A stretch of DNA of 56,904 nucleotides from a virus (taxonomy: Duplodnaviria; Caudoviricetes): positions 1 through 56,904 of the IMG/VR virus record IMGVR_UViG_3300015082_000001; one strand, given 5' to 3'. Below the pieces are notes generated by a model. The model ran no database searches. It saw nothing but the letters and a program-made list of their open reading frames with translations, and was not told the DNA's origin. The position numbers and the translations under genes were made by a program. Shown piece by piece: positions 25,339-36,135 of the stretch (position 1 is the stretch's first letter; each line of letters starts with the position of its first letter).

Positions 25339-25773
25339 ATGGCTCCCAAGGAGGTACCAAAGGTTGCCCGATATGCCGGAACGAAGTCGGTCTGTCTTGT
25401 CACTGGAGACAGATGGTGGACTGATAGGGATCTCATTCTGCGGGCTTTACGAACGCTACCTGACCACACTGTTATCATACATGGCAATGCTGCCGGTGCA
25501 GATAACTTTGCTGACCTCGCTGCGGCTGAGCTCGGGTTACCGAGAGCCCAAGTTCCTTACTTTGGTTGTTTCCACCGAGCAGGCGGACCCATTCGGAATA
25601 CCTTTATGCTTCATGTGGTATGCGGTCTTCGAGACCAAGGATGGACAGTCCACGTTTTCGCCTTCCACGATGACCTCGATCATTCTCGAGGGACTCGGGA
25701 CATGGTGATGAAAGCAAAAGATGCTGGCCTGCGCGTACAACTCGTGCGTCATAAAAAGAAAGGGGCGGTATGA
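25339..25773 (+). CDS. SLOG-family protein (YspA/DUF2493-like)
   Basis: LVTGDR, IIHGNAAGAD, AGGPIRN, SRGTRDM motifs. Confidence 0.85.
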   Translation: MAPKEVPKVARYAGTKSVCLVTGDRWWTDRDLILRALRTLPDHTVIIHGNAAGADNFADLAAAELGLPRAQVPYFGCFHRAGGPIRNTFMLHVVCGLRDQGWTVHVFAFHDDLDHSRGTRDMVMKAKDAGLRVQLVRHKKKGAV

Positions 25774-26534: not shown

Positions 26535-26721
26535 GGAGATTCTGCCGAATCAACGAACGACTAGGCAAAAAGAGATTCTTAGGCAAGCCTATGTATGGGT
26601 TGAAGAAGTACATGCTCGGGATATCGCCGCGTGTGATCTAAGGATCGCACTCTATGAGGAAGAAGGGATCATCGACCATGACCGTCTACTTGGTGGGGGA
26701 AGCCCCCCCGCCGGGAGCTGA
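26449..26721 (+). CDS. hypothetical protein
   Basis: ORF with AGGAG RBS. Confidence 0.5.
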   Translation: MTSKYVLEAMKNDRAAVLKKGPIKPRTFEEILPNQRTTRQKEILRQAYVWVEEVHARDIAACDLRIALYEEEGIIDHDRLLGGGSPPAGS

Positions 26722-27151
26722 TCTACCACACAAACCCTTTAGGGGGAAATCAGGTCAAGTTCTAAGTGAACTTTGTGGATTCAAAGTTTCAGAAGTGTTT
26801 GAGACTTGCAATCTCCTACCCTACATACCTGAGGTTAATCCTGTAGGTGGAATGAGGTTTCCTCTCAAAGAGGGGAAGAAATATGCTCGAGAGTTTCTTA
26901 AGAAGCTCGATCCTAAGGATAACTTCATCATAGTTGGAGTTAGGTGCACTCGGGCTTTTAGGATGAGACATGGGGTGGAACCCTGTTCATGGACTACTAT
27001 CTCCTTAGGTACAACTTTGACGATAGGCCTGGATATAGAGTCTATTGTATTCGGTTGGATTCCACACCCATCTGGAGGATACAATAGGTGGTATAAAAAC
27101 TCTCAGAATGCTAGATCAGTACGTAGATTTTTGCGAGGGGATCGTGAGTAA
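26678..27151 (+). CDS. uracil-DNA-glycosylase superfamily protein (family 4/5-like, stand-alone)
   Basis: VGEAP, PFRGKSG, CNLL, PHPSG..NRWY motifs. Confidence 0.8.
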   Translation: MTVYLVGEAPPPGADLPHKPFRGKSGQVLSELCGFKVSEVFETCNLLPYIPEVNPVGGMRFPLKEGKKYAREFLKKLDPKDNFIIVGVRCTRAFRMRHGVEPCSWTTISLGTTLTIGLDIESIVFGWIPHPSGGYNRWYKNSQNARSVRRFLRGDRE

Positions 27152-28655
27152 TACTTACAGATATAAACGGAGACCCTACCACCATCAGGTAGCTGCGCTG
27201 AAGAAGTTACTTAGTACTGACTTCGGTGGTGCGTTGTTGATGGAGCCGCGAACCGGGAAAACCAAGGTTATTATCGACTACGCGTCTGTGTTACATCAGC
27301 TAGGTCGCGTCGATAGAGTACTGATAGTTTGCCCTATCTCAGTCATGGGGGTGTGGGAAGACGAGATAAATCTGAACTGCCCCTGGCGCAGGCGTGTGGT
27401 GGTGTGGGATAAGAGAGGACGTAAGCGGGTAGAGTTGCCAAAGTACGGTCATGACATTCTCGACTTTGTTATTATAAACTACGATAGTTTCTCCACACCA
27501 GGGCGTATCCGGGGACGAGATGAGGAGGGCAATATCCTCAGATCTAAGACTCGAGGTGGACGCTTTGAGATGAAGCGAGTCTTCAAGGCATGGGCTCCGC
27601 AACTAATAGTATTGGATGAGAGCCACCGGATAAAATCCCCGAGCGCACGCAAGACGACAACTCTATGGAGTCTCAGTAGTGTCGCTCAGTATCGCGTTCT
27701 TGCCACAGGGACTGCAGTGACAAAGAAGAAACGAGTCTTTGACATCTATTCTCAGTGGAAGTTTATGAATCCTGAGGGCTGGATCAAGGATTATACCTCA
27801 GCTACATTCAAGGCTGAGTTTGGGATTTTTAGATCTATGGGGAACTACGAGAGGTTCATCAGGAATCAGAATCTGCCCAAGTTACGACGACTAATCCATG
27901 CAGATTCCTTTGCAGTTAGGCGAGATGAATGTTTCGATCTTCCCCCTTCTCGCACTCAAGTTTTTCACATTACTCTGGATGAGGAAGAAAGTAGAATCTA
28001 CGATGAGATGGCAGAGGCTCTTATTGCTAGGATCAAAACTGGGGAGGTCACTGAGGCGCAGATCAAACTGGTTCAGATACTACGCTTGGCCCAGATTACA
28101 AGTGGCATTGTTAAGACTACTCCTGACGATGGTTCTGCGGGTCGCCTCGTTAGAATCGGAAGATCGAAACTCGTGGCGCTTCAGGATAGGCTCGAGGATT
28201 TGTTTGAAGCTGATGAAAAAGTTGTGGTCTGTGCAAGGTTCCTTGCGGACATTGGGGGCGCACTCGACATCGGTAAGAGACTTAGGGTACCTGTATTCCC
28301 CCTCTACGGGGCTATCAAACGACGAGATAGAGACCTTAATATCCGCAACTTTCGGGATCATCAAGGAGCCGCCCTCTTTGTAATGCAGCCTCAGGCTGGA
28401 GCTCTGGGCATTGACCTTAGCACATCTGCTACCATGATATGGTTTAGCTTGACCAACAGCATGGTTGATTGGACGCAGTGTAATGATCGGATTGCGTTGT
28501 CACCTCGAGGGACGGTTATTGAGTACATGTTGGCGCGGGGGACTATAGATGATCTGATGTTTGAAGGACTTCAGGAAGATAAGAATGTAGCTCGTCAGAT
28601 CACTGAATCGCCAGATGTGCTTCGACGTAACTGGAGAGCGAAGAGGTTGGAATAA
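27144..28655 (+). CDS. SNF2/DEAD-like helicase
   Basis: MEPRTGKT, LDESHRIK, ATGT, GIDLS motifs. Confidence 0.92.
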   Translation: MSNTYRYKRRPYHHQVAALKKLLSTDFGGALLMEPRTGKTKVIIDYASVLHQLGRVDRVLIVCPISVMGVWEDEINLNCPWRRRVVVWDKRGRKRVELPKYGHDILDFVIINYDSFSTPGRIRGRDEEGNILRSKTRGGRFEMKRVFKAWAPQLIVLDESHRIKSPSARKTTTLWSLSSVAQYRVLATGTAVTKKKRVFDIYSQWKFMNPEGWIKDYTSATFKAEFGIFRSMGNYERFIRNQNLPKLRRLIHADSFAVRRDECFDLPPSRTQVFHITLDEEESRIYDEMAEALIARIKTGEVTEAQIKLVQILRLAQITSGIVKTTPDDGSAGRLVRIGRSKLVALQDRLEDLFEADEKVVVCARFLADIGGALDIGKRLRVPVFPLYGAIKRRDRDLNIRNFRDHQGAALFVMQPQAGALGIDLSTSATMIWFSLTNSMVDWTQCNDRIALSPRGTVIEYMLARGTIDDLMFEGLQEDKNVARQITESPDVLRRNWRAKRLE

Positions 28656-28670
28656 ATATCATAAATAGTA

Positions 28671-28699
28671 TTGACACGGAATCAGCAAGATGATAGTAT
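28671..28699 (+). promoter_or_regulatory. promoter of the nucleotide-metabolism operon
   Basis: TTGACA-17-TAGTAT, TGA before -10. Confidence 0.75.
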
Positions 28700-28734: not shown

Positions 28735-29121
28735 ATGATAAGCAAACAGCCCCCATCTGAGTATTGGAGTATCCTGGTAACATCCCCAGATGTTATGGGA
28801 GATTCTTCTCCAACATCAGTTCTGAGTGCTCGAGGTTTTATGCAAGGTATGATGAATCGGATGGGTGTGTCCTATCACAAGTATGGGACTATTCAGAACA
28901 ACTTCCCACACCGACGGGTGGGTGTGGATAATGCACTTCAGCGCATCGATATGTACCAAGAGGATGGTAACCTAGAGTGGCTGATTGACGCAGCCAACTA
29001 CCTTCTCATAGAGAGTCTTCGCCCCTCGCATCCTAAGGCTCACTTCGAAGCTACAACCTCCGAGCAATCTCCAGGTGCCATAAACCGTGATGGCTCAGTA
29101 AGCTATGGGAAGGACGTATGA
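28735..29121 (+). CDS. possible all-alpha NTP pyrophosphohydrolase-like protein
   Basis: NRM..SYHKYG...RI..Y..GN.E.LIDAANYL helical pattern; next to a dUTPase. Confidence 0.45.
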   Translation: MISKQPPSEYWSILVTSPDVMGDSSPTSVLSARGFMQGMMNRMGVSYHKYGTIQNNFPHRRVGVDNALQRIDMYQEDGNLEWLIDAANYLLIESLRPSHPKAHFEATTSEQSPGAINRDGSVSYGKDV

Positions 29122-29570
29122 ATACCAAAGATATAATCTTGGACTTTCAGAAGATTCCTTGGAAGAGTGCAAACATGGCTGAATGGGGGGATGACCTGCT
29201 GTGCACTATCTGGGAATCGCAGAAGCATCTCATCAGAAAGTATCACGACATCGAACGGAGGAATGGCTGCGTTGTTATCCCCGAGGTCAACTGGGGTGAT
29301 CTGGATGATCGCTATGTTCAGATGCGACTGAAGGATCTGATGCAGCGCTGCGTCGAGGAACTAGGCGAGGCGATGAACTGTCTCAAAAACAAGCCTTGGA
29401 AGAACTCGTATGTTGAGACTGATAAGCCTCACTTCGAAGAAGAACTGGCAGATGCCCTTCATTTCTTTGTAGAGTTGTGTTTGACTGCAGGAGTTTCGGC
29501 CGAAGATCTGTTCACGTTGTACATGAAGAAGCACGCGGTAAATGAGTTTAGGCAGGATTCAAACTACTAG
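29118..29570 (+). CDS. dimeric (all-alpha) dUTPase/dCTPase
   Basis: EELGEA, KPWK, EEELADALHF, K..VN..RQ..NY motifs. Confidence 0.88.
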   Translation: MNTKDIILDFQKIPWKSANMAEWGDDLLCTIWESQKHLIRKYHDIERRNGCVVIPEVNWGDLDDRYVQMRLKDLMQRCVEELGEAMNCLKNKPWKNSYVETDKPHFEEELADALHFFVELCLTAGVSAEDLFTLYMKKHAVNEFRQDSNY

Positions 29571-29579
29571 AGGAGACTG

Positions 29580-29825
29580 ATGCTCGGAACTAAGGTACAT
29601 GGCAAAGCAGCGAAGATCATCATGGATGTGGATGGTACGGATGAACCCATCTTTGTACTGAGAGCGAAAGACATCTTCGCTACTATGGCGATCGTCGAGT
29701 ATCTCAGGGTAGTTGACTCCTATGCCCCAGATGACCATGAGTTTGAGGAATCTATTGTCAATATCCTTGAGCGGTTCAAGACCTGGCAAAAGGAGAACAT
29801 TCAACGCGTGAGATACCCAGATTGA
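29580..29825 (+). CDS. hypothetical protein
   Basis: DEPIFVLRAKD motif; AGGAG RBS. Confidence 0.65.
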   Translation: MLGTKVHGKAAKIIMDVDGTDEPIFVLRAKDIFATMAIVEYLRVVDSYAPDDHEFEESIVNILERFKTWQKENIQRVRYPD

Positions 29826-30049
29826 TGGCTACATATCGTGGGCACATGAGGAGTGGTAATCCCTATCGGATGCCCTGGCATGCTCGGGTTAAGGTAGATC
29901 ATATAGATTTTTCTCTAGGGTACTATGAAACTGAGGAGGAAGCGATTCAAGTTGAGAATGAGTTTAGACTACGTCTGACCGGGAAAGCCCAAAACAGATT
30001 GAGAAAACATGCGAGCGTTTCGAGCGCCGACGTTAACTGCCCTACATGA
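29822..30049 (+). CDS. stand-alone AP2-like DNA-binding domain protein
   Basis: WHARVKV....SLGYYETEEEA. Confidence 0.65.
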   Translation: MMATYRGHMRSGNPYRMPWHARVKVDHIDFSLGYYETEEEAIQVENEFRLRLTGKAQNRLRKHASVSSADVNCPT

Positions 30050-31037
30050 CCGACTCTGTGAAACACTGATCCATGCCCAACCGCATGAGCTAGACCTTGT
30101 TACTTCCGTAGATGTTCAGATCCACAATACCATGTGTGAAGCCCAGTCTATGGACTGGGAGTTTAATCTTAAGAACATGTGGTTGACTAAGGGTCGCTGG
30201 TCTATGATGGTAAAGCAATACCTAGACCCAGATGATCTAACATTCTGGTTAGGTAAGTGCGTAGCAGGGATCGGGCTCAAAGGGAGGGGAATCAGTGTAC
30301 TGCGTACGAGAGTGGTTAAACCCCGTGGAGGAGCACACGTGGGAAATAGGGAGACTCGGAGGTGGGGGTCCTGTATGCTTAATCTATCATACAAGGCTAT
30401 CCCCCAGCCTCAGATCACACTCTATTCCAGAACATCGTATCTGGGTTACATCGGAGCTCTTGATCTTTCAGTGGCATGGATGGCAGCTAGATATCTGGCC
30501 AAAGAGATGGATGTCCATGTTGAGGACTTTAGTTTCCTCTGGTATAACCAGGCTTTACAGTGGCATAACTTCAAGAGCCTGGCTTATATGCTCAACCATC
30601 ATGACCCCGAGAAGCGCAAGCGGTATCGAAGACTTATGCTCACGCCCGAACCGAAACTCACAGGGGAGGAACATCTCTTCGTCACCTCGTCCCCTGCCCT
30701 AACTATGTCAAGGGCGTGGATTCAGAAGGTCATTGCTGAGGATAAGCGGCATGATACTCTGGGAGATATGACTTACAATACATACCGCCGTATTCGTCGG
30801 CGCTACCACACCGAAGTTCGTGGGTATGAATATGCCAAGCAGTTCGAGGGATGGTCTTACCACACCAAGGGTGAGCAAATGGGTGAACCCAAAGAGTTCT
30901 TCAAGGCTTATCAGCCTCTACCCTCTATTGATATCCATGACTGTGACTTCAAGAATATCGGTCTCCCGTTTGACCGATCTCTTGGAGTTCAGATGAATGA
31001 TGAGGTTTCAGATGAGGATGAGGACGAGGATGAGTAA
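30009..31037 (+). CDS. divergent thymidylate-synthase-fold protein
   Basis: GSCMLNLSY...ITLYSRTSYLGYIGALD...A..LA aligns to the TS C..Q/RS.D..G...N core. Confidence 0.65.
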   Translation: MRAFRAPTLTALHDRLCETLIHAQPHELDLVTSVDVQIHNTMCEAQSMDWEFNLKNMWLTKGRWSMMVKQYLDPDDLTFWLGKCVAGIGLKGRGISVLRTRVVKPRGGAHVGNRETRRWGSCMLNLSYKAIPQPQITLYSRTSYLGYIGALDLSVAWMAARYLAKEMDVHVEDFSFLWYNQALQWHNFKSLAYMLNHHDPEKRKRYRRLMLTPEPKLTGEEHLFVTSSPALTMSRAWIQKVIAEDKRHDTLGDMTYNTYRRIRRRYHTEVRGYEYAKQFEGWSYHTKGEQMGEPKEFFKAYQPLPSIDIHDCDFKNIGLPFDRSLGVQMNDEVSDEDEDEDE

Positions 31038-31054
31038 AAATGTACCTCCTCGAT

Positions 31055-31083
31055 TTGACTTGGAGTGACAGATCTGATATAAT
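31055..31083 (+). promoter_or_regulatory. extended -10 promoter
   Basis: TTGACT-17-TATAAT, TGA before -10. Confidence 0.85.
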
Positions 31084-31136
31084 GGGGTTGATGATGAGGG
31101 GGAATGCCCTCGCACACTATAAGTTAAGGGGGATGG

Positions 31137-31286
31137 ATGAAGGTCAGTGAATACATCGAGAAACTTCAGGCACTAAGAGTTGACCATGGAGATCTTGAGT
31201 GCGTCGATACTCGAGATAATCCCATGCCTAACCCAGAGTTCAATGATGATGTTGAACCCTGTTTCGTTCTGGCGGAAGATGGATGA
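31137..31286 (+). CDS. 49-aa hypothetical protein (not in ORF track)
   Basis: MKVSEYIEKLQALRVDHGD..; RBS AAGGGGG; stop overlaps next ATG. Confidence 0.6.
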   Translation: MKVSEYIEKLQALRVDHGDLECVDTRDNPMPNPEFNDDVEPCFVLAEDG

Positions 31287-31372
31287 TTGTTCTTCAGGCC
31301 CTGTTAGTTTGGCTTAACCTCTCCTTCATAGTTGCGGGTCTTTTTTCTTGGACTCTAAGGCATACTCGGTGA
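31283..31372 (+). CDS. 29-aa single-TM peptide (not in ORF track)
   Basis: MIVLQALLVWLNLSFIVAGLFSWTLRHTR; ATGA/GTGA coupled. Confidence 0.55.
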   Translation: MIVLQALLVWLNLSFIVAGLFSWTLRHTR

Positions 31373-31458
31373 CTCTTAAGCAACGTTGGCTGATTATTCT
31401 CATGCTCTTCATCGCCTACTTCATTACAGTAGGGTTACTTGTTTGGAGGATGGGATGA
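31369..31458 (+). CDS. 29-aa single-TM peptide (not in ORF track)
   Basis: MTLKQRWLIILMLFIAYFITVGLLVWRMG; GTGA/ATGA coupled. Confidence 0.55.
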   Translation: MTLKQRWLIILMLFIAYFITVGLLVWRMG

Positions 31459-31598
31459 ACATCGTGGATCGAATCAAGCAGCTGACGTGTCCTAAGTGTC
31501 AAACGAAAGGGAGGTTGTTACCTGGCTCATTCTACAGTAGACTCAGAGTTCGTTGTCTCAACTGTGGTGCAGTCCTCAATCTAAGGAGAAAAAAGTGA
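31455..31598 (+). CDS. small Zn-ribbon protein
   Basis: CPKC..CLNC; coupled start. Confidence 0.6.
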   Translation: MNIVDRIKQLTCPKCQTKGRLLPGSFYSRLRVRCLNCGAVLNLRRKK

Positions 31599-31750
31599 TT
31601 AACTGGGCAGCCCTAGATCGAGCTATTACCATTACTGGTATGGCGGCGACAGATACCACTGTGAAACCTGTTGAGTTGGCTAAGCAGGTACTAGAGATTA
31701 GGGATATGATTCTATCAGCAGACACCGACACAGATAAGGAGGAGTCATGA
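31595..31750 (+). CDS. hypothetical protein
   Basis: GTG after AAGGAG; coupled. Confidence 0.55.
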   Translation: MINWAALDRAITITGMAATDTTVKPVELAKQVLEIRDMILSADTDTDKEES

Positions 31751-31944
31751 ACTGGAAAGAGTTTAAGGAAGAAGTTGAAGGGGTTGTTCCCCCAGAGGGT
31801 GTGGACATCAACGAGTGGGAGGTTATCATCACAGTCAGAGGCGAACGGCAACATGAGTTTGCTCCTACTGGGATTGCTTACGATGAGGATACAGACAATG
31901 AGGAGCCCCAGCCCTTCATCATCATCGAGGCTCGTCGGCAATGA
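31747..31944 (+). CDS. acidic hypothetical protein
   Basis: AGGAGG RBS; coupled. Confidence 0.65.
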   Translation: MNWKEFKEEVEGVVPPEGVDINEWEVIITVRGERQHEFAPTGIAYDEDTDNEEPQPFIIIEARRQ

Positions 31945-32654
31945 GATCTTTCAGGAACTTCATTGATGCGAAGAATGAGATCACACGAGACCTCAATGAA
32001 CTTGGCATATCTGTCTTCGCAGGCTACCAGTCCAAGGAGGTGAGCGAGGCGGATGTAGAGAAACTCACGACCAAGGAACTGAGAGACTATGATTACATCG
32101 TTCTTCAGCCTAACCCACTCGATCTAAGGCCCACACAACCTTGGGCTGATGCGGAATGGGCTGAGCGGCGCAAGGGTATCAATGGAAACCCGCTTAACCC
32201 GGGGCGAGCCTGGAAACTGCGACCGGATGTGTGGGAACCTTTGCTCGAGGATGTAAGTATTAGACCGGGAGAGATTGAGCAACGTTTCTCCTATACTTAC
32301 GCAGCACGCTTGGCGGTGAATGATATTCCTCATATGTTAACTGAGATGAGGAAACATCCCACCTCTAGACAGATCTACATCAGCATCTGGAACCCTCAAC
32401 TAGATAGTCAACGGGTAGGAAGGCGGCGAGTACCTTGCACCTTGGGTTATCAGATCATGTATCGGAATGGGAAGATCGACATCGCATACCATATGCGGTC
32501 TTCAGACTTTGCTACCCATTTCGACAATGACATCTGGCTTGCCTTGCAACTTCAGCAGTTCTTTGCAACTGCCTTAGATCAACCCATCGGCACCTTCACC
32601 CATAAGATAGGGAGTCTGCATGTTTACGCAAGCGAGGTAAGTCATGCCTTCTGA
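31941..32654 (+). CDS. thymidylate-synthase family enzyme, dCMP hydroxymethylase/methylase type
   Basis: SRQIYISIW, PCTLGYQ, MRSSDFATHFDND (Asp at the ThyA Asn177 position, as in T4 gp42), GSLHVY. Confidence 0.85.
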   Translation: MRSFRNFIDAKNEITRDLNELGISVFAGYQSKEVSEADVEKLTTKELRDYDYIVLQPNPLDLRPTQPWADAEWAERRKGINGNPLNPGRAWKLRPDVWEPLLEDVSIRPGEIEQRFSYTYAARLAVNDIPHMLTEMRKHPTSRQIYISIWNPQLDSQRVGRRRVPCTLGYQIMYRNGKIDIAYHMRSSDFATHFDNDIWLALQLQQFFATALDQPIGTFTHKIGSLHVYASEVSHAF

Positions 32655-32991
32655 TCTTCCTGGTATGCCTAACAATGGCATGCCGCCCAATATCGAAGAG
32701 TTGGTAGGTAGACTCCAGCAACAATCTGAGCAACAGAATCAGTTCATCGACCCCTTCTCCTCTCATGGTATGCCTCTTCATCCTGACAAGGTTGACTGGT
32801 GGGCTGAGGGTGCACAGGATGCTGAGGGGAGGGCCTACTGCCTCCTCTATGTGATGTCTGCCAATAGCCTTGCGAGGGTATGGCTTAACACTCAGGACAT
32901 AACTAAGTTTATCGGTTTCCTTGAAGAGATCAAAACTAAGATGGGTCCCATAGTTCCTCCCCCGCCAGGTTTTCATGTCCCAAGAGCCTGA
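32644..32991 (+). CDS. hypothetical protein
   Basis: ORF with GAGG RBS. Confidence 0.6.
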   Translation: MPSDLPGMPNNGMPPNIEELVGRLQQQSEQQNQFIDPFSSHGMPLHPDKVDWWAEGAQDAEGRAYCLLYVMSANSLARVWLNTQDITKFIGFLEEIKTKMGPIVPPPPGFHVPRA

Positions 32992-33224
32992 TGCCTCCGA
33001 CCGAGCATCTTTGCCATCACCCGAGGTGTTACCTCGTAGTACCGAGGAGACTTCTCGCGTGCTCCCGCCATTGGTATCAACTGCCCAAGAAGCTCAGGAA
33101 CAAGGTGTGGACCGCATACAATCCTGGGCAAGAGACCCGTGGGGACATATCAGACGAATACAATCAAGTCATGAAGGAAGTTCAGGCATGGTGGAAGAGC
33201 CACTTAGACCAACCCGCGACGTAG
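32991..33224 (+). CDS. small Cys/His-rich protein
   Basis: HLC..C..LAC..HW..LP pattern. Confidence 0.6.
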   Translation: MPPTEHLCHHPRCYLVVPRRLLACSRHWYQLPKKLRNKVWTAYNPGQETRGDISDEYNQVMKEVQAWWKSHLDQPAT

Positions 33225-33637
33225 TGTTAATGGAGATAGCACATGTCATCGCCAAAAGATCTACCTGTAGTAGAGCTCAGGTGGGCGCGCTCATCTGCAC
33301 AGCAGGTCGCATACTTAGCACAGGCTATAACGGCGCTCCTGCGGGAATGGCCCACTGCAACCATCGTTATCAGCCCCCCGACGATCCTCGTGGGTGCAAC
33401 ACTGCAGTCCATGCAGAAGCGAACGCTGTTGCTTGGGCCGCCCGTTACGGAGTTCGAACTGAAGGAGCTACTCTCTACAGTACCCTCGCTCCTTGTCTCG
33501 CGTGCGCACAACTGATTATCAACTGCGGAATCAAGCGAGTAATCTTTGGTACAAGGTATCGTGATCCTGCAGGTTTCCAACTTCTTGCTGCAGTAGGGAT
33601 AGTAATGTATAACCTTTCTCAAGAAGATGATGTCTAG
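33188..33637 (+). CDS. dCMP deaminase
   Basis: RSTC..VGA, TGYNG, HAEANA, PCLAC. Confidence 0.93.
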   Translation: MVEEPLRPTRDVVLMEIAHVIAKRSTCSRAQVGALICTAGRILSTGYNGAPAGMAHCNHRYQPPDDPRGCNTAVHAEANAVAWAARYGVRTEGATLYSTLAPCLACAQLIINCGIKRVIFGTRYRDPAGFQLLAAVGIVMYNLSQEDDV

Positions 33638-36110
33638 TATCGAGGATCTCCTCAATCCGAACTGCACGAAGTGTAAGTTACATAAGTACACAGAGTATGT
33701 GTGTGATCCCGGGTGGGGAAACTTTGATCCACACATAATGGTTGTGAGCAAGATGAGTAACTCAGTTACTTACCAGAGAAGTTTAGAGGCTGACTTAGCT
33801 GAGGCTGGTCTTGAGCCTCAAGATATGTATTGGACTGCGGCACTGAAGTGCAAGACCTTCGATGCTAATGCCAGTAACCTTGATGTCAAGATGTGCAGGG
33901 AGTATCTGGATATCGAGATAGAACACTTCAAACCTAAGTGGATACTGAGCTTAGGTAACGAAGCATTGTTTTCGACTACAGGACACTCAGGGATCACCAA
34001 GTATCGCGGGCGCGTAATCACTAAGGGCGACTATTCCGTGTTCCCTACAATCTCCCCAGCATCTGTGATGCGCAACCCTGGTCAGCGTCAAGCGTATATG
34101 GCTGATCTACAGCTCTTTGCTGCTCATGTCTATGAGAAATCTAGCACAGTACCCCAGCCTACTATCTGGGTTGTTAATACCAAGCGCAAGGTTGAACAGC
34201 TCAAAGGTATGCTTGAGGTAGCTGACCTGGTGTCCTATGACATAGAAACCACCCGCGACGATGAAAGGGTAGGTAAGATCGTATGCCTCTGTGGTACTAT
34301 ACCCAAAGCTATGAAGGACCGCTCGGGCGAGCCCAGAAATATCACATTTGCTCTGCCGCTTTTCCACCCTCAGAGCCCCTTCAAGGCGGTGTGGAGGAGC
34401 TTGTTGCGGCATATTTCGACCTCGTTCCAGAGAGTTCCAAAGCAGGTCGCCCACAATGGCAAGTTCGACTCCAAGTGGTTGAGGCAGTATGGGGTCGAGG
34501 CAAGGGTTTCTTTCGATACGATGATAGCGGCTCACATCTTAGACGAGAATCGCCAGAAGGGTCTAAAGCCCCAGGCGAGTTCAAGACTGGGAGTGGCACC
34601 ATGGGCGATAGAAACAAAGGACTTACTGAATACCTCACTAAATCAGGTCTTACGATACTGTAGTCTTGATACCTGGTATACCTATCATATCTACCTAGAC
34701 ATTCGAGCTGAGTTGATCGAGCAACCTCGGTTAGCTCGTATCTTCAGTAAGATCCTTATGCCTGCAGGCGAGATCTTTACTGAAGCTGAGATGAGGGGGA
34801 TATGGATAGATAGAGAACGACTTGCTACGAATACCAAGATAGCGGGAGACATGATCGAGGATATCACCCACAATCTAATGCAGTGGGTGCCTACATCTAA
34901 AGATACAATGTGGCCCACTTACAAAAATGGGAAGGAGGTTGGGATAAACTTTGCACCCTCAATCTTCTCGAGGTGGTTGCTTTTCAAGCATTTAGGATTG
35001 CCTATCTTGGCAAGGGGGAAAGAAAAGCCTGATGGTAGTCCTGGCGATCCTAGCATGGCTGAGGGGGTTATGCTAGAGCTTAAGGGTCATCACCCCGTCA
35101 TCGAGGTTATGCTTAAGCGACAAGGCTGGCTGAAGAACTCACAGTTCCTACAAGCCTACGAGGAGTTGGCAGACGACAATGACAGAGTCCACACCACCTT
35201 TAAACTTTATGGAACAGTTACGGGGAGGCTCTCTTCGGGAAAAGCTGAAGCTGATAAAGTCTCAGGACGTGCTCCAATCAGGGGTATTAACTTGCAGCAA
35301 GTGCCTCGGGATGTATTTATCCGAGGACTCTTCGGGGCAGCACCTGGTTTCACGTTTGTTGAGGTCGATTTCTCTCAGGTCGAGCTACGCGTGGTGGCTT
35401 TTTTATCTCGAGATAGGACGATGCTGCATCTGTACCAGACGGGCCAGGATATACATCGGGCTACGGCTGCATGGGTCCTGGGGATTCCTGCCTCTAGAAT
35501 AGATAAGGTTCAACGCAAGAAAGCTAAGGCAGTTAATTTCGGTTTCGCTTATGGCATGGGTGCTAAAAAGTTTGTACAAACTGCCTTCGAGAAATACGAA
35601 CTTCACTTCACTCTAGATGAGGCACAAGGGATTCGTCGTCAGTTCTTTGAACGCTTCTCTGGGTTGCTGCCCTGGCATGCTAGGCAACGGAGGTTGGTGC
35701 ATGAGTACGCTCGAGTTCAAAGTCCTATTGGTCGTGTTCGGCATCTACCTGATATTCGTTCTCAAGACCCGAACGTGGTAGCTGAAGCAGAGAGGCAAGC
35801 GATAAATAGCCCCGTGCAATCTTTTGCCTCAGATATGAATCTGCTTGGCATGATTACTACAAAGAAAGCATTCGAGGAGGAAGGCCTCGAGGCTCACATT
35901 GTGGGCAATGTTCATGATGCCACTTTGTTTGAGATCAAGACTGAGCAGGTACCTCGAGCTCTCTCCATCATCAAGTATAAGTTCGAGCATCTACCCCTCA
36001 AGAAGATGTTCGGTGTGGAGATGGACGTCCCTATAGTTGCGGACTTGAAGACAGGGGGTTGGTGGGGGGATGCGGTTGAAGTTGATCCGAAAGAGATTGA
36101 GGATTATTGA
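33627..36110 (+). CDS. DNA polymerase, family A, with N-terminal UDG-4-like domain and 3'-5' exonuclease
   Basis: CTKC..C-x14-C UDG-4 cysteines; YDIETT, HNGKFD; TGRLSS, DFSQVELR, KAVNFGFAYG, VHDA. Confidence 0.95.
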   Translation: MMSSIEDLLNPNCTKCKLHKYTEYVCDPGWGNFDPHIMVVSKMSNSVTYQRSLEADLAEAGLEPQDMYWTAALKCKTFDANASNLDVKMCREYLDIEIEHFKPKWILSLGNEALFSTTGHSGITKYRGRVITKGDYSVFPTISPASVMRNPGQRQAYMADLQLFAAHVYEKSSTVPQPTIWVVNTKRKVEQLKGMLEVADLVSYDIETTRDDERVGKIVCLCGTIPKAMKDRSGEPRNITFALPLFHPQSPFKAVWRSLLRHISTSFQRVPKQVAHNGKFDSKWLRQYGVEARVSFDTMIAAHILDENRQKGLKPQASSRLGVAPWAIETKDLLNTSLNQVLRYCSLDTWYTYHIYLDIRAELIEQPRLARIFSKILMPAGEIFTEAEMRGIWIDRERLATNTKIAGDMIEDITHNLMQWVPTSKDTMWPTYKNGKEVGINFAPSIFSRWLLFKHLGLPILARGKEKPDGSPGDPSMAEGVMLELKGHHPVIEVMLKRQGWLKNSQFLQAYEELADDNDRVHTTFKLYGTVTGRLSSGKAEADKVSGRAPIRGINLQQVPRDVFIRGLFGAAPGFTFVEVDFSQVELRVVAFLSRDRTMLHLYQTGQDIHRATAAWVLGIPASRIDKVQRKKAKAVNFGFAYGMGAKKFVQTAFEKYELHFTLDEAQGIRRQFFERFSGLLPWHARQRRLVHEYARVQSPIGRVRHLPDIRSQDPNVVAEAERQAINSPVQSFASDMNLLGMITTKKAFEEEGLEAHIVGNVHDATLFEIKTEQVPRALSIIKYKFEHLPLKKMFGVEMDVPIVADLKTGGWWGDAVEVDPKEIEDY

Positions 36111-36135
36111 CATGGAGAGTGAGATATGATATGAT
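36107..36135 (+). promoter_or_regulatory. extended -10 promoter
   Basis: TTGACA-17-TATGAT, TGA before -10. Confidence 0.8.

Follow-up and report, generated by a model that had tools for sequence, protein, structure and literature searches.

The window analysed here, a complete virus record of 56,904 bases (IMG/VR record IMGVR_UViG_3300015082_000001; CheckV completeness 100), is the genome of a siphovirus-type phage of ~50% GC, in which terminase, portal, capsid and tail genes are followed by a replication block. Two genes of that block concern us: one that starts at position 30,009 (the 30009 gene) and one that starts at position 31,941 (the 31941 gene). The first encodes a protein that is predicted to have the fold of thymidylate synthase (TS) and that keeps counterparts of the TS nucleophile and phosphate-binding residues in a sequence which TS profiles do not recognize; the second encodes a TS homologue that the profiles do recognize.

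A PHROG scan assigned the 30009 protein to phrog_13667, a family of unknown function (E 1.5e-104). No Pfam family was found even at E≤1, PF00303 included, no NCBIfam model matched, and phmmer returned no PDB sequence at E≤10. When the whole genome was scanned with PF00303 the 31941 gene was the only match, and comparison of the two proteins by BLASTP gave nothing significant (best E 2.0). With E≤1e-3 as the threshold, one search for relatives returned 919 proteins, and the 120 among the matches listed were all without a name or a Pfam domain; in a search of cluster representatives the family comprised 188 clusters at 50% identity. Matches in the ESM Atlas were unnamed viral clusters, plus one cluster with a partial PF00303 label, while those in BFVD were uncharacterized viral proteins on top, then TS and deoxycytidine monophosphate (dCMP) hydroxymethylases, with no functional name. 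We found no description of the family in the literature, and a term search of PMC11269248 was likewise empty. Labels on divergent members are inconsistent: ‘pyrimidine hmase synthase’ in Yersinia phage P744 (L165, 4995–5828) and in MW202455 (L166, 2909–3679), two records whose label was, we presume, generated automatically from the name of a conserved domain; ‘colanic acid biosynthesis glycosyltransferase’ in Clostridium phage CPAS-15 (MN417334.1); and ‘hypothetical protein’ elsewhere.

The AlphaFold2 model of the protein, built on 97 relatives, has a mean predicted local distance difference test score (pLDDT) of 93.8 and a predicted template modelling score of 0.91, the weak parts being the loop at residues 101–120 and the tail only. 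In a comparison of the model with 48,161 PDB representatives, made without Foldseek, seven reached a Z score of at least 5: AfhB (14.5), MilA (12.2), three ThyA (10.1–11.1), a plant dihydrofolate reductase–TS (9.8) and T4 dCMP hydroxymethylase (9.4). The next row stood at 3.2. Re-alignment of the Foldseek list gave Z 14.8 to AfhB entry 9iqu (root-mean-square deviation 3.9, 187 aligned residues, model residues 1–202), 14.3 to MilA and ~11 to many ThyA entries, the alignments of which reach ~residue 327. Among the top PDB matches listed by Foldseek itself, the labelled rows were of the TS family with the sole exception of a designed serine hydrolase (4f2v_B). We conclude that the TS fold is predicted for the 30009 protein at a similarity far beyond chance. 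A preliminary description of the region had proposed a second TS-fold protein at this place, and the comparison bears this out: all seven representatives at Z≥5 belong to the TS family, and the structure as predicted is TS-like, with its best Z score at 14.5.

Active-site residues were assigned through a profile–profile alignment between the 30009 and 31941 families (hhalign; probability 45.7%, E 2e-4). Their conservation was read from an alignment of 242 distinct relatives, assembled in four profile-search rounds from cluster representatives and the open reading frames (ORFs) of 163 loci, and the Escherichia coli ThyA numbering is that given in the available part of PMC13326640. The assignments are collected with the other features in Table 1.

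Table 1. Positions of the features discussed, in the window unless a locus is named; residue counts refer to the aligned relatives.
Feature	Position	Strand	Remarks
30009 gene, 342 amino acids, PHROG 13667 member, diverged TS fold (predicted)	30009..31037	+	ATG-started ORF
Tyr71 codon, likely counterpart of TS Tyr94 (C5 proton abstraction)	30219..30221	+	Tyr 241/241; equivalence tentative
Cys122 codon, counterpart of TS nucleophile Cys146	30372..30374	+	pairs with C166 of 31941 protein; Cys 242/242
Arg141 codon, counterpart of TS Arg166 (phosphate binding, R-S-x-D motif)	30429..30431	+	pairs with R186; Arg 242/242
Tyr144 codon, place of folate-pterin Asp169	30438..30440	+	pairs with D189; Tyr 153, Glu 53 of 242
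Asp152 codon, place of base-specificity residue Asn177 (Asp = cytosine type)	30462..30464	+	pairs with D197; Asp 238, Glu 4 of 242
Arg261 codon, basic helix YRRIRRRYH, C-terminal helical region	30789..30791	+	Arg 221/235; role inferred
Acidic disordered C-terminal tail	31002..31034	+	sequence; pLDDT <60
TS-family enzyme of predicted cytosine type (Asp at Asn177, Arg at Leu143, Ser/Thr at His147, Asp169 kept)	31941..32654	+	PF00303 E 3.8e-14
SNF2-type helicase, upstream end of conserved block	27045..28655	+	PF00176 E 4.9e-18; in 79/82 loci
All-alpha NTP pyrophosphatase (dimeric dUTPase/MazG type)	29118..29570	+	PF08761 E 1.9e-10, PF03819 E 8e-4; phrog_12184 E 1.9e-35
dCMP deaminase	32975..33637	+	PF00383 E 5.1e-24; in 76/82 loci bearing the 30009 family
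Family A DNA polymerase (PolA), N-terminal UDG-superfamily domain, downstream end of block	33627..36110	+	PF00476 E 1.8e-71, PF03167 E 2.7e-12; in 77/82 loci
ThyX loci: L015, L040, L057, L123, L128, L129, L133, L135, L137, L153; L166	L166 1839-2495

The motifs that carry these residues are G120-S121-C122, R141-T142-S143-Y144 and L183-Q184-W185-H186 in the translation, and Asp152 stands 11 residues past Arg141, the spacing found between Arg166 and Asn177 in E. coli ThyA. Gly120 is kept in 233 of 234 relatives, and position 63 is Arg or Lys in 240 of 241. The relatives are themselves divergent, with a mean pairwise difference of 0.66 among the 60 loci compared. Because Cys122, Arg141 and Tyr71 are invariant and position 152 is acidic across these 242 divergent relatives, the residue pattern points to a working pyrimidine C6/C5 site rather than to a decayed partner subunit; the loss or drift of catalytic residues by which pseudoenzymes are recognized is not seen in the family. 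The preliminary description had correctly read the catalytic Cys (in GSC), the Arg and the specificity Asp as kept, as both the register and the 242-relative alignment attest, and its reading of RTSY for RS.D and of LQWH for H.Y is matched by the translation. Its term ‘degenerate’ does not fit, with three invariant residues and an acidic position 152 in 242 of 242 relatives, and on its residue pattern we describe the protein as diverged.

Other TS features are changed. Asp169, which contacts the folate pterin, is not kept, Tyr144 standing in its place. The substitution of Asn for Asp169 that is the signature of flavin-dependent 5-hydroxy-dCMP synthases is absent too, and Asn lies outside the five commonest residues at column 144. 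The His207-x-Tyr209 motif, which holds the deoxyribose 3′-OH in TS, is replaced by Gln184-Trp-His186; in the profile–profile alignment Q184 pairs with H227 of the 31941 protein (ThyA His207) and H186 with its Y229 (ThyA Tyr209). At the Leu143 position the residue is not acidic, being Trp119, three before the Cys (Trp in 156 of 234), an approximate assignment since the loop register is off by one. The S-R-R loop, which supplies the trans arginines of the TS homodimer, is absent. A low-confidence global alignment sets G92-R93-G94 at its place, which makes R93 a candidate only (alignment probability 0.8%), and Arg is found there in only 108 of 240 relatives. The statement in the preliminary description that there is no SR dipeptide is not literally true, since the protein contains S140-R141 and S233-R234; it is the S-R-R loop of TS that is lacking.

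Past H186 the protein continues for 156 residues, in agreement with the earlier mention of an extra C-terminal region of ~150 residues. This is, however, not an appended domain: ThyA aligns to ~327, and the short relatives (230–275 residues, 50 of 242) still span most positions to ~280, so that the true extras are ~211–225, 281–300 and the tail. Arginines conserved in the close subfamily are R63, R93, R99, R117, R261, R263 and R265, and a helix at 257–271 of the model spans the basic stretch YRRIRRRYH. The acidic tail that had been reported at the C-terminus is confirmed, nine of the last 10 residues being Asp or Glu. At least five acidic residues among the last 10 occur in 81 of 240 relatives but in no TS-like neighbour out of 162; for background reading frames the figure is 242 of 3,172. 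By this comparison of sequences the tail is a trait of a subfamily.

The available parts of PMC8670742 and PMC13326640 describe how Asp at position 177 switches TS to dCMP, and the latter ties an acidic residue at the Leu143 position to non-methyl products. The 31941 protein has the cytosine-type residue. Its best solved relatives are AfhB (3.1e-9), MilA (2e-8) and an N229D mutant of Lactobacillus casei TS crystallized with dCMP (2.7e-8), and its Asp197 falls on the Asp of each of them in the three alignments. The corresponding set from the fetched loci consists of 162 proteins, two of which are gapped at the Asn177 position; the remaining 160 all have Asp at that position and Arg at the Leu143 position, with Ser or Thr at the His147 position and Asp (157) or Glu (3) at the Asp169 position. 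One of the two trans arginines is kept, as S/T-R-Q, in 147 of 152. Asn196 was considered as the Asn177 counterpart and rejected, because 101 of 160 proteins have Asn there and 57 have Asp, while the next position is Asp in all 160. Proteins of this set did not differ in four active-site motifs according to whether a 30009-family gene accompanied them. We conclude that the 31941 product is, on its residues, of the cytosine type and not an ordinary deoxythymidine monophosphate (dTMP) synthase, a point that the preliminary description had missed.

The linkage of the two genes was followed in 82 loci that bear the 30009 family: 79 from IMG/VR found by an alignment search with 32 sequences, one found with the single protein (on the same contig as L007), Curtobacterium phage Shrew and Mycobacterium phage Muddy. 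A gene of the 31941 type (TS-like gene) lies just downstream in 81 of them, the sole miss being L027, where the match lies at the contig end. The block runs helicase, kinase, pyrophosphatase, 30009 family, TS-like, deaminase, PolA, an order held from 74% down to 26% identity and common to Shrew, Muddy, Clostridium phage Clo-PEP-1, Yersinia phage P744 and a spring-water phage. Further counts in the 82 loci are 54 for the pyrophosphatase (in a strict single-sequence search), 70 for an exonuclease and 79 for a thymidylate-kinase-like deoxynucleoside monophosphate (dNMP) kinase. By tblastn the 30009 family was found in 85 phage records, with Actinobacteria as hosts throughout (Gordonia 68; Mycobacterium 9, including Muddy gp47 and FF47; Streptomyces 4; Microbacterium 2; Curtobacterium 1; Mycobacteroides 1), and a divergent branch occurs in phages of Clostridium perfringens (10 records) and of Serratia, Pseudomonas, Yersinia and Brevundimonas (16 records), where the order of the genes is unchanged.

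Loci were also picked by the TS-like gene: 81 in all, 80 from IMG/VR and that of Clo-PEP-1, of which three are cut upstream, leaving 78 evaluable. A 30009-family gene was recognized in 64 at first pass and in 71 after profile iteration, while seven (L124, L139, L141–143, L145 and L152) have the TS-like gene without a member of the family within 7 kb. The linkage is one-way: the TS-like enzyme can lack the 30009 family, never the reverse. The co-occurrence across phages that had been suggested as a check is therefore found in 81 of 82 loci, and homologues of the 30009 protein do not occur independently of the 31941 family, L027 being cut at the contig end. L124 and L152 have kinase, pyrophosphatase and TS-like genes in that order, after which L124 continues with a family B DNA polymerase (Pfam), and L145 has the same pyrophosphatase–TS adjacency; this arrangement looks like a minimal version of the module, three genes in size, in a different replication lineage.

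In 10 IMG/VR loci and in MW202455 a gene for the flavin-dependent thymidylate synthase ThyX stands no more than 7 kb from the TS-fold pair; in those phages, at any rate, dTMP does not come from the pair. The available part of PMC8670742 reports that, specifically on contigs of phage DNA with modified cytosine, Asp177 TS domains are found alongside dCMP deaminases and pyrophosphatases of the PRA-PH/MazG type; the window carries that set, a MazG-type pyrophosphatase, an Asp-type TS homologue and a dCMP deaminase. In Muddy, gp45 (L002, 8667–9209), labelled hypothetical, is a dCMP deaminase (PF00383 E 2.5e-18), so that Muddy has the full set of kinase, pyrophosphatase, 30009 family, Asp-type TS homologue and deaminase.

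The two TS-fold genes abut in Muddy and Shrew and stand up to ~2 kb apart in L011 and L026. In the window the gap is 904 bp (31038–31940) and holds about four small ORFs, one of which (31386–31598) encodes a zinc-ribbon protein (PF13717 E 3e-4, below cut-off), and a promoter-like site. Sites of this kind, sigma-70 type with 10–11 of 12 positions and a TG before the −10 hexamer, sit in the gaps after the 30009 gene (31055–31083, 11/12), after PolA (36107–36135) and after the helicase (28671–28699); their total in the region is not above that of shuffled sequence (15 versus 14.6). A 75-residue ORF (29822–30049) overlaps the start of the 30009 gene by 41 bases and is weakly similar to the C-terminal part of an HNH endonuclease (phrog_99, E 3e-6). 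Between helicase and pyrophosphatase, at the place of the kinase, stands a 128-residue ORF (28735–29121) with no Pfam, PHROG or NCBIfam match. Upstream of the helicase a 165-residue ORF (26654–27151) is weakly UDG-like (E 0.035, below cut-off), and upstream of the replication block a 144-residue ORF (25339–25773) has the SLOG-family domain PF10686 YAcAr (E 8e-8, above cut-off).

Among enzymes of known function the best structural match is AfhB, the flavin-dependent dCMP 5-hydroxylase of phage HY126 (9iqu as above; 9iqc, Z 14.5, deviation 3.7 over 185 residues, model residues 1–202). The AfhB group, together with the 5-hydroxy-dCMP synthases RB69 gp48 and DLP3 gp80, shares with the 30009 protein a compact TS fold, a Cys nucleophile, Asp at the Asn177 position and a changed Asp169, and in those flavin-dependent synthases a changed Asp169, with Asn diagnostic, marks a non-folate cofactor according to the accessible text of PMC13326640. 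Nevertheless, identity between AfhB and the 30009 protein is 9–10% with no match at sequence level, position 169 in the 30009 family is Tyr or Glu rather than Asn, and the 30009 protein is ~100 residues longer, with a helical C-terminal region and the acidic tail. MilA, the cytidine monophosphate (CMP) 5-hydroxymethylase of mildiomycin biosynthesis (5b6e and 5jnh, Z 14.3 and 12.2), is the top Foldseek match (E 1.6e-6) and is likewise a cytosine-type TS homologue of similar length (318 residues) with a C-terminal extension. It differs in that identity is 6–7% in VIA alignments and 9–11% in Foldseek, R-x-x-D and H-x-Y are kept, and Pfam-level TS profiles are matched through relatives, which is not so for the 30009 protein.

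The deoxycytidylate hydroxymethylase of T4, gp42, resembles the 30009 protein in fold (Z 9.4 to 6l18) and in the presumed use of Cys and Asp on dCMP, and the T4 set for deoxycytidine replacement (gp56 dCTPase, gp1 dNMP kinase, cd dCMP deaminase) resembles the module described here, with its pyrophosphatase, TS homologue, deaminase and, in relatives, kinase. The role of gp42 would, however, be better filled by the 31941 neighbour, which keeps Asp169; the 30009 protein is extra, more diverged and has no T4 counterpart. ThyA (PF00303) shares the fold (Z 10–11.6) and counterparts of Cys146, Arg166 and probably Tyr94, whereas in the 30009 protein Asn177 has become Asp, Asp169 Tyr, His207/Tyr209 Gln/His and His147 Met, and there is neither an S-R-R loop nor a PF00303 match. 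As it has no match to the TS sequence profile and lacks Asp169, the Asp169-to-Asn change and the His-x-Tyr motif, we class the 30009 protein as a variant within the TS fold that lies outside every characterized subfamily.

The reading that we favour, while giving it no better than an even chance, is that the 30009 protein is an active TS-fold enzyme working on dCMP or a 5-substituted dCMP in a deoxycytidine-replacement module. By analogy with TS, Cys122 would attack C6 of the pyrimidine, Arg141 would hold the phosphate, Asp152 would read and protonate cytosine N3/N4 and Tyr71 would serve at C5. Its partners in a pre-replicative module would be the nucleoside triphosphate (NTP) pyrophosphatase, the dCMP deaminase and the Asp-type TS homologue, joined in most relatives by a dNMP kinase. 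With Tyr at the place of the folate-pterin Asp169, canonical use of methylene-tetrahydrofolate by the protein is improbable, and transfer of a non-folate group, which the preliminary description had raised, is plausible on the sequence. We infer the substrate, chemistry and cofactor in two forms. The protein may install a different C5 group through another cofactor, as do the flavin-dependent hydroxylases with Asn at 169. Alternatively, it may re-activate the product of its neighbour, for example 5-hydroxymethyl-dCMP, by way of the exocyclic methylene intermediate, so that a second substitution can follow; one-way dependence on the TS-like gene fits a step that needs the neighbour's product, yet we consider this form improbable rather than probable. 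The wider proposal, that the family carries out a reaction new to the TS fold, either a second substitution on the neighbour's C5 product or a new C5 group through a non-folate cofactor, and that its carriers package an undescribed cytosine modification, is tentative and in our judgement doubtful.

Several observations weigh against an active cytosine-nucleotide enzyme. Conservation of the residues that replace His-x-Tyr is moderate (Gln184 in 153 of 227 and His186 in 151 of 239 relatives), and the equivalences of Tyr71 with Tyr94 and of Arg93 with Arg126′ come from an alignment of 0.8% probability. The many conserved arginines and the acidic tail might also be expected of a protein that binds nucleic acid or another protein. 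In the literature found, no DNA modification is documented for any phage with the pair, and a zinc dCMP deaminase with a pyrophosphatase would equally fit the supply of deoxythymidine triphosphate (dTTP) should the neighbour have been misread as Asp-type. Moreover, a search of the whole window found no dNMP kinase, as against 79 of 82 related loci with one, so that phosphorylation of a modified dCMP would here need a host enzyme.

TS enzymes are dimers whose active sites are common to both subunits. On this ground the 30009 protein might be a heteromeric partner of the 31941-type homologue, which it would contact at the TS sheet interface or by some other surface, regulating or completing it while its own site binds a nucleotide or acts allosterically. 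One-way co-occurrence with adjacency in 81 of 82 loci, the abutting genes of Muddy and Shrew, the single trans arginine kept by the neighbour (S/T-R-Q in 147 of 152) and the possibility that R93 sits at the trans-arginine place in the close subfamily all speak for it. A mere partner would not, however, need catalytic residues that are invariant in 242 relatives, and co-variation argues the other way. In a mirror-tree test on 60 non-identical loci, out of 64 with all five proteins near full length, divergence of the 30009 family correlated less with that of the TS-like protein (r 0.73) than with that of PolA (0.90) or helicase (0.93), and no excess co-variation with the TS-like protein remained once PolA and helicase were removed (partial r 0.056). 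The TS-like enzyme also occurs alone in seven of 78 evaluable loci, and other genes are tolerated between the pair (here about four small ORFs and a promoter-like site in 904 bp; up to ~2 kb in L011 and L026). Prediction of a heterodimer from alignments of both proteins scored 0.00 in two runs in which controls were absent, and counts neither way. The asymmetric heterodimer with the 31941 product put forward in the preliminary description thus finds no positive evidence in the partial correlation, the seven loci or the intervening ORFs and promoter-like site; these are compatible with binding, and we judge a heteromer unlikely.

The remaining explanations concern a different substrate or no catalysis at all. 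That the protein acts on DNA or RNA after their synthesis, flipping out a cytosine, already modified or not, and altering it, its basic helix binding nucleic acid and its acidic tail docking on the replisome, would suit the conserved arginine cluster with YRRIRRRYH, the position among replication genes and the divergence that tracks PolA and helicase, as well as the disordered acidic tail (81 of 240 relatives, no TS-like neighbour), which is reminiscent of those that phage SSB and helicase proteins carry. The tail is, however, missing from two thirds of the family, the closest structures are all mononucleotide enzymes, and the TS nucleotide pocket encloses the 5′ phosphate and 3′ OH; we know of no TS-fold enzyme that acts on polymers, and consider this quite unlikely. 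Slighter still is the likelihood of a non-catalytic nucleotide binder, a decoy sequestering dCMP or deoxyuridine monophosphate (dUMP) or an inhibitor poisoning host thymidylate or deoxycytidylate enzymes. The altered cofactor site (Tyr144) of a TS fold would be in keeping with such a role, as would the habit of base-replacing phages (SPO1 and PBS2 types) of shutting off the competing pathway of the host, but binding alone requires neither an invariant nucleophilic Cys nor an invariant Tyr, and hosts from Actinobacteria to Clostridium, Yersinia, Serratia and Pseudomonas have differing TS systems. Least of all do we expect ordinary thymidylate supply, in which the module boosts dTTP and the 30009 protein is a diverged dTMP synthase or dUMP enzyme. 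Neighbours labelled dUTPase, thymidylate kinase, thymidylate synthase and dCMP deaminase would indeed form a dTTP pathway, and a GC content of ~50% sits with this too. Against it, the uracil/cytosine switch is Asp and not Asn (238, plus 4 Glu, of 242 relatives; 160 of 160 neighbours), the folate Asp is lost from the 30009 protein, and ThyX is also present in 11 phages with the pair.

The TS fold was long held to perform folate-dependent one-carbon transfer only, a view that the flavin-dependent dCMP hydroxylases of 2025–2026 have changed, as described in the accessible portion of PMC13326640. The 30009 family is a further branch of the fold as predicted: large, unseen by Pfam and NCBIfam, with the nucleophile machinery kept and the cofactor position changed, and locked to a second cytosine-type homologue. 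Association screens that rely on Pfam, such as that in PMC8670742, cannot detect its gene. Carriers include hundreds of soil viruses as well as phages like Muddy, GTE2, Shrew, Clo-PEP-1 and P744, and the kept core together with the linkage points to undescribed pyrimidine chemistry in this large group, to which the therapy phage Muddy belongs. If the favoured cytosine-nucleotide reading is right and the pair makes a modified deoxycytidine, it would add a pathway of DNA modification and would explain part of the evasion of restriction and other DNA-targeting defences by the phages that carry it; it would matter, too, when much-used phages such as Muddy are sequenced or engineered or have their host range predicted.

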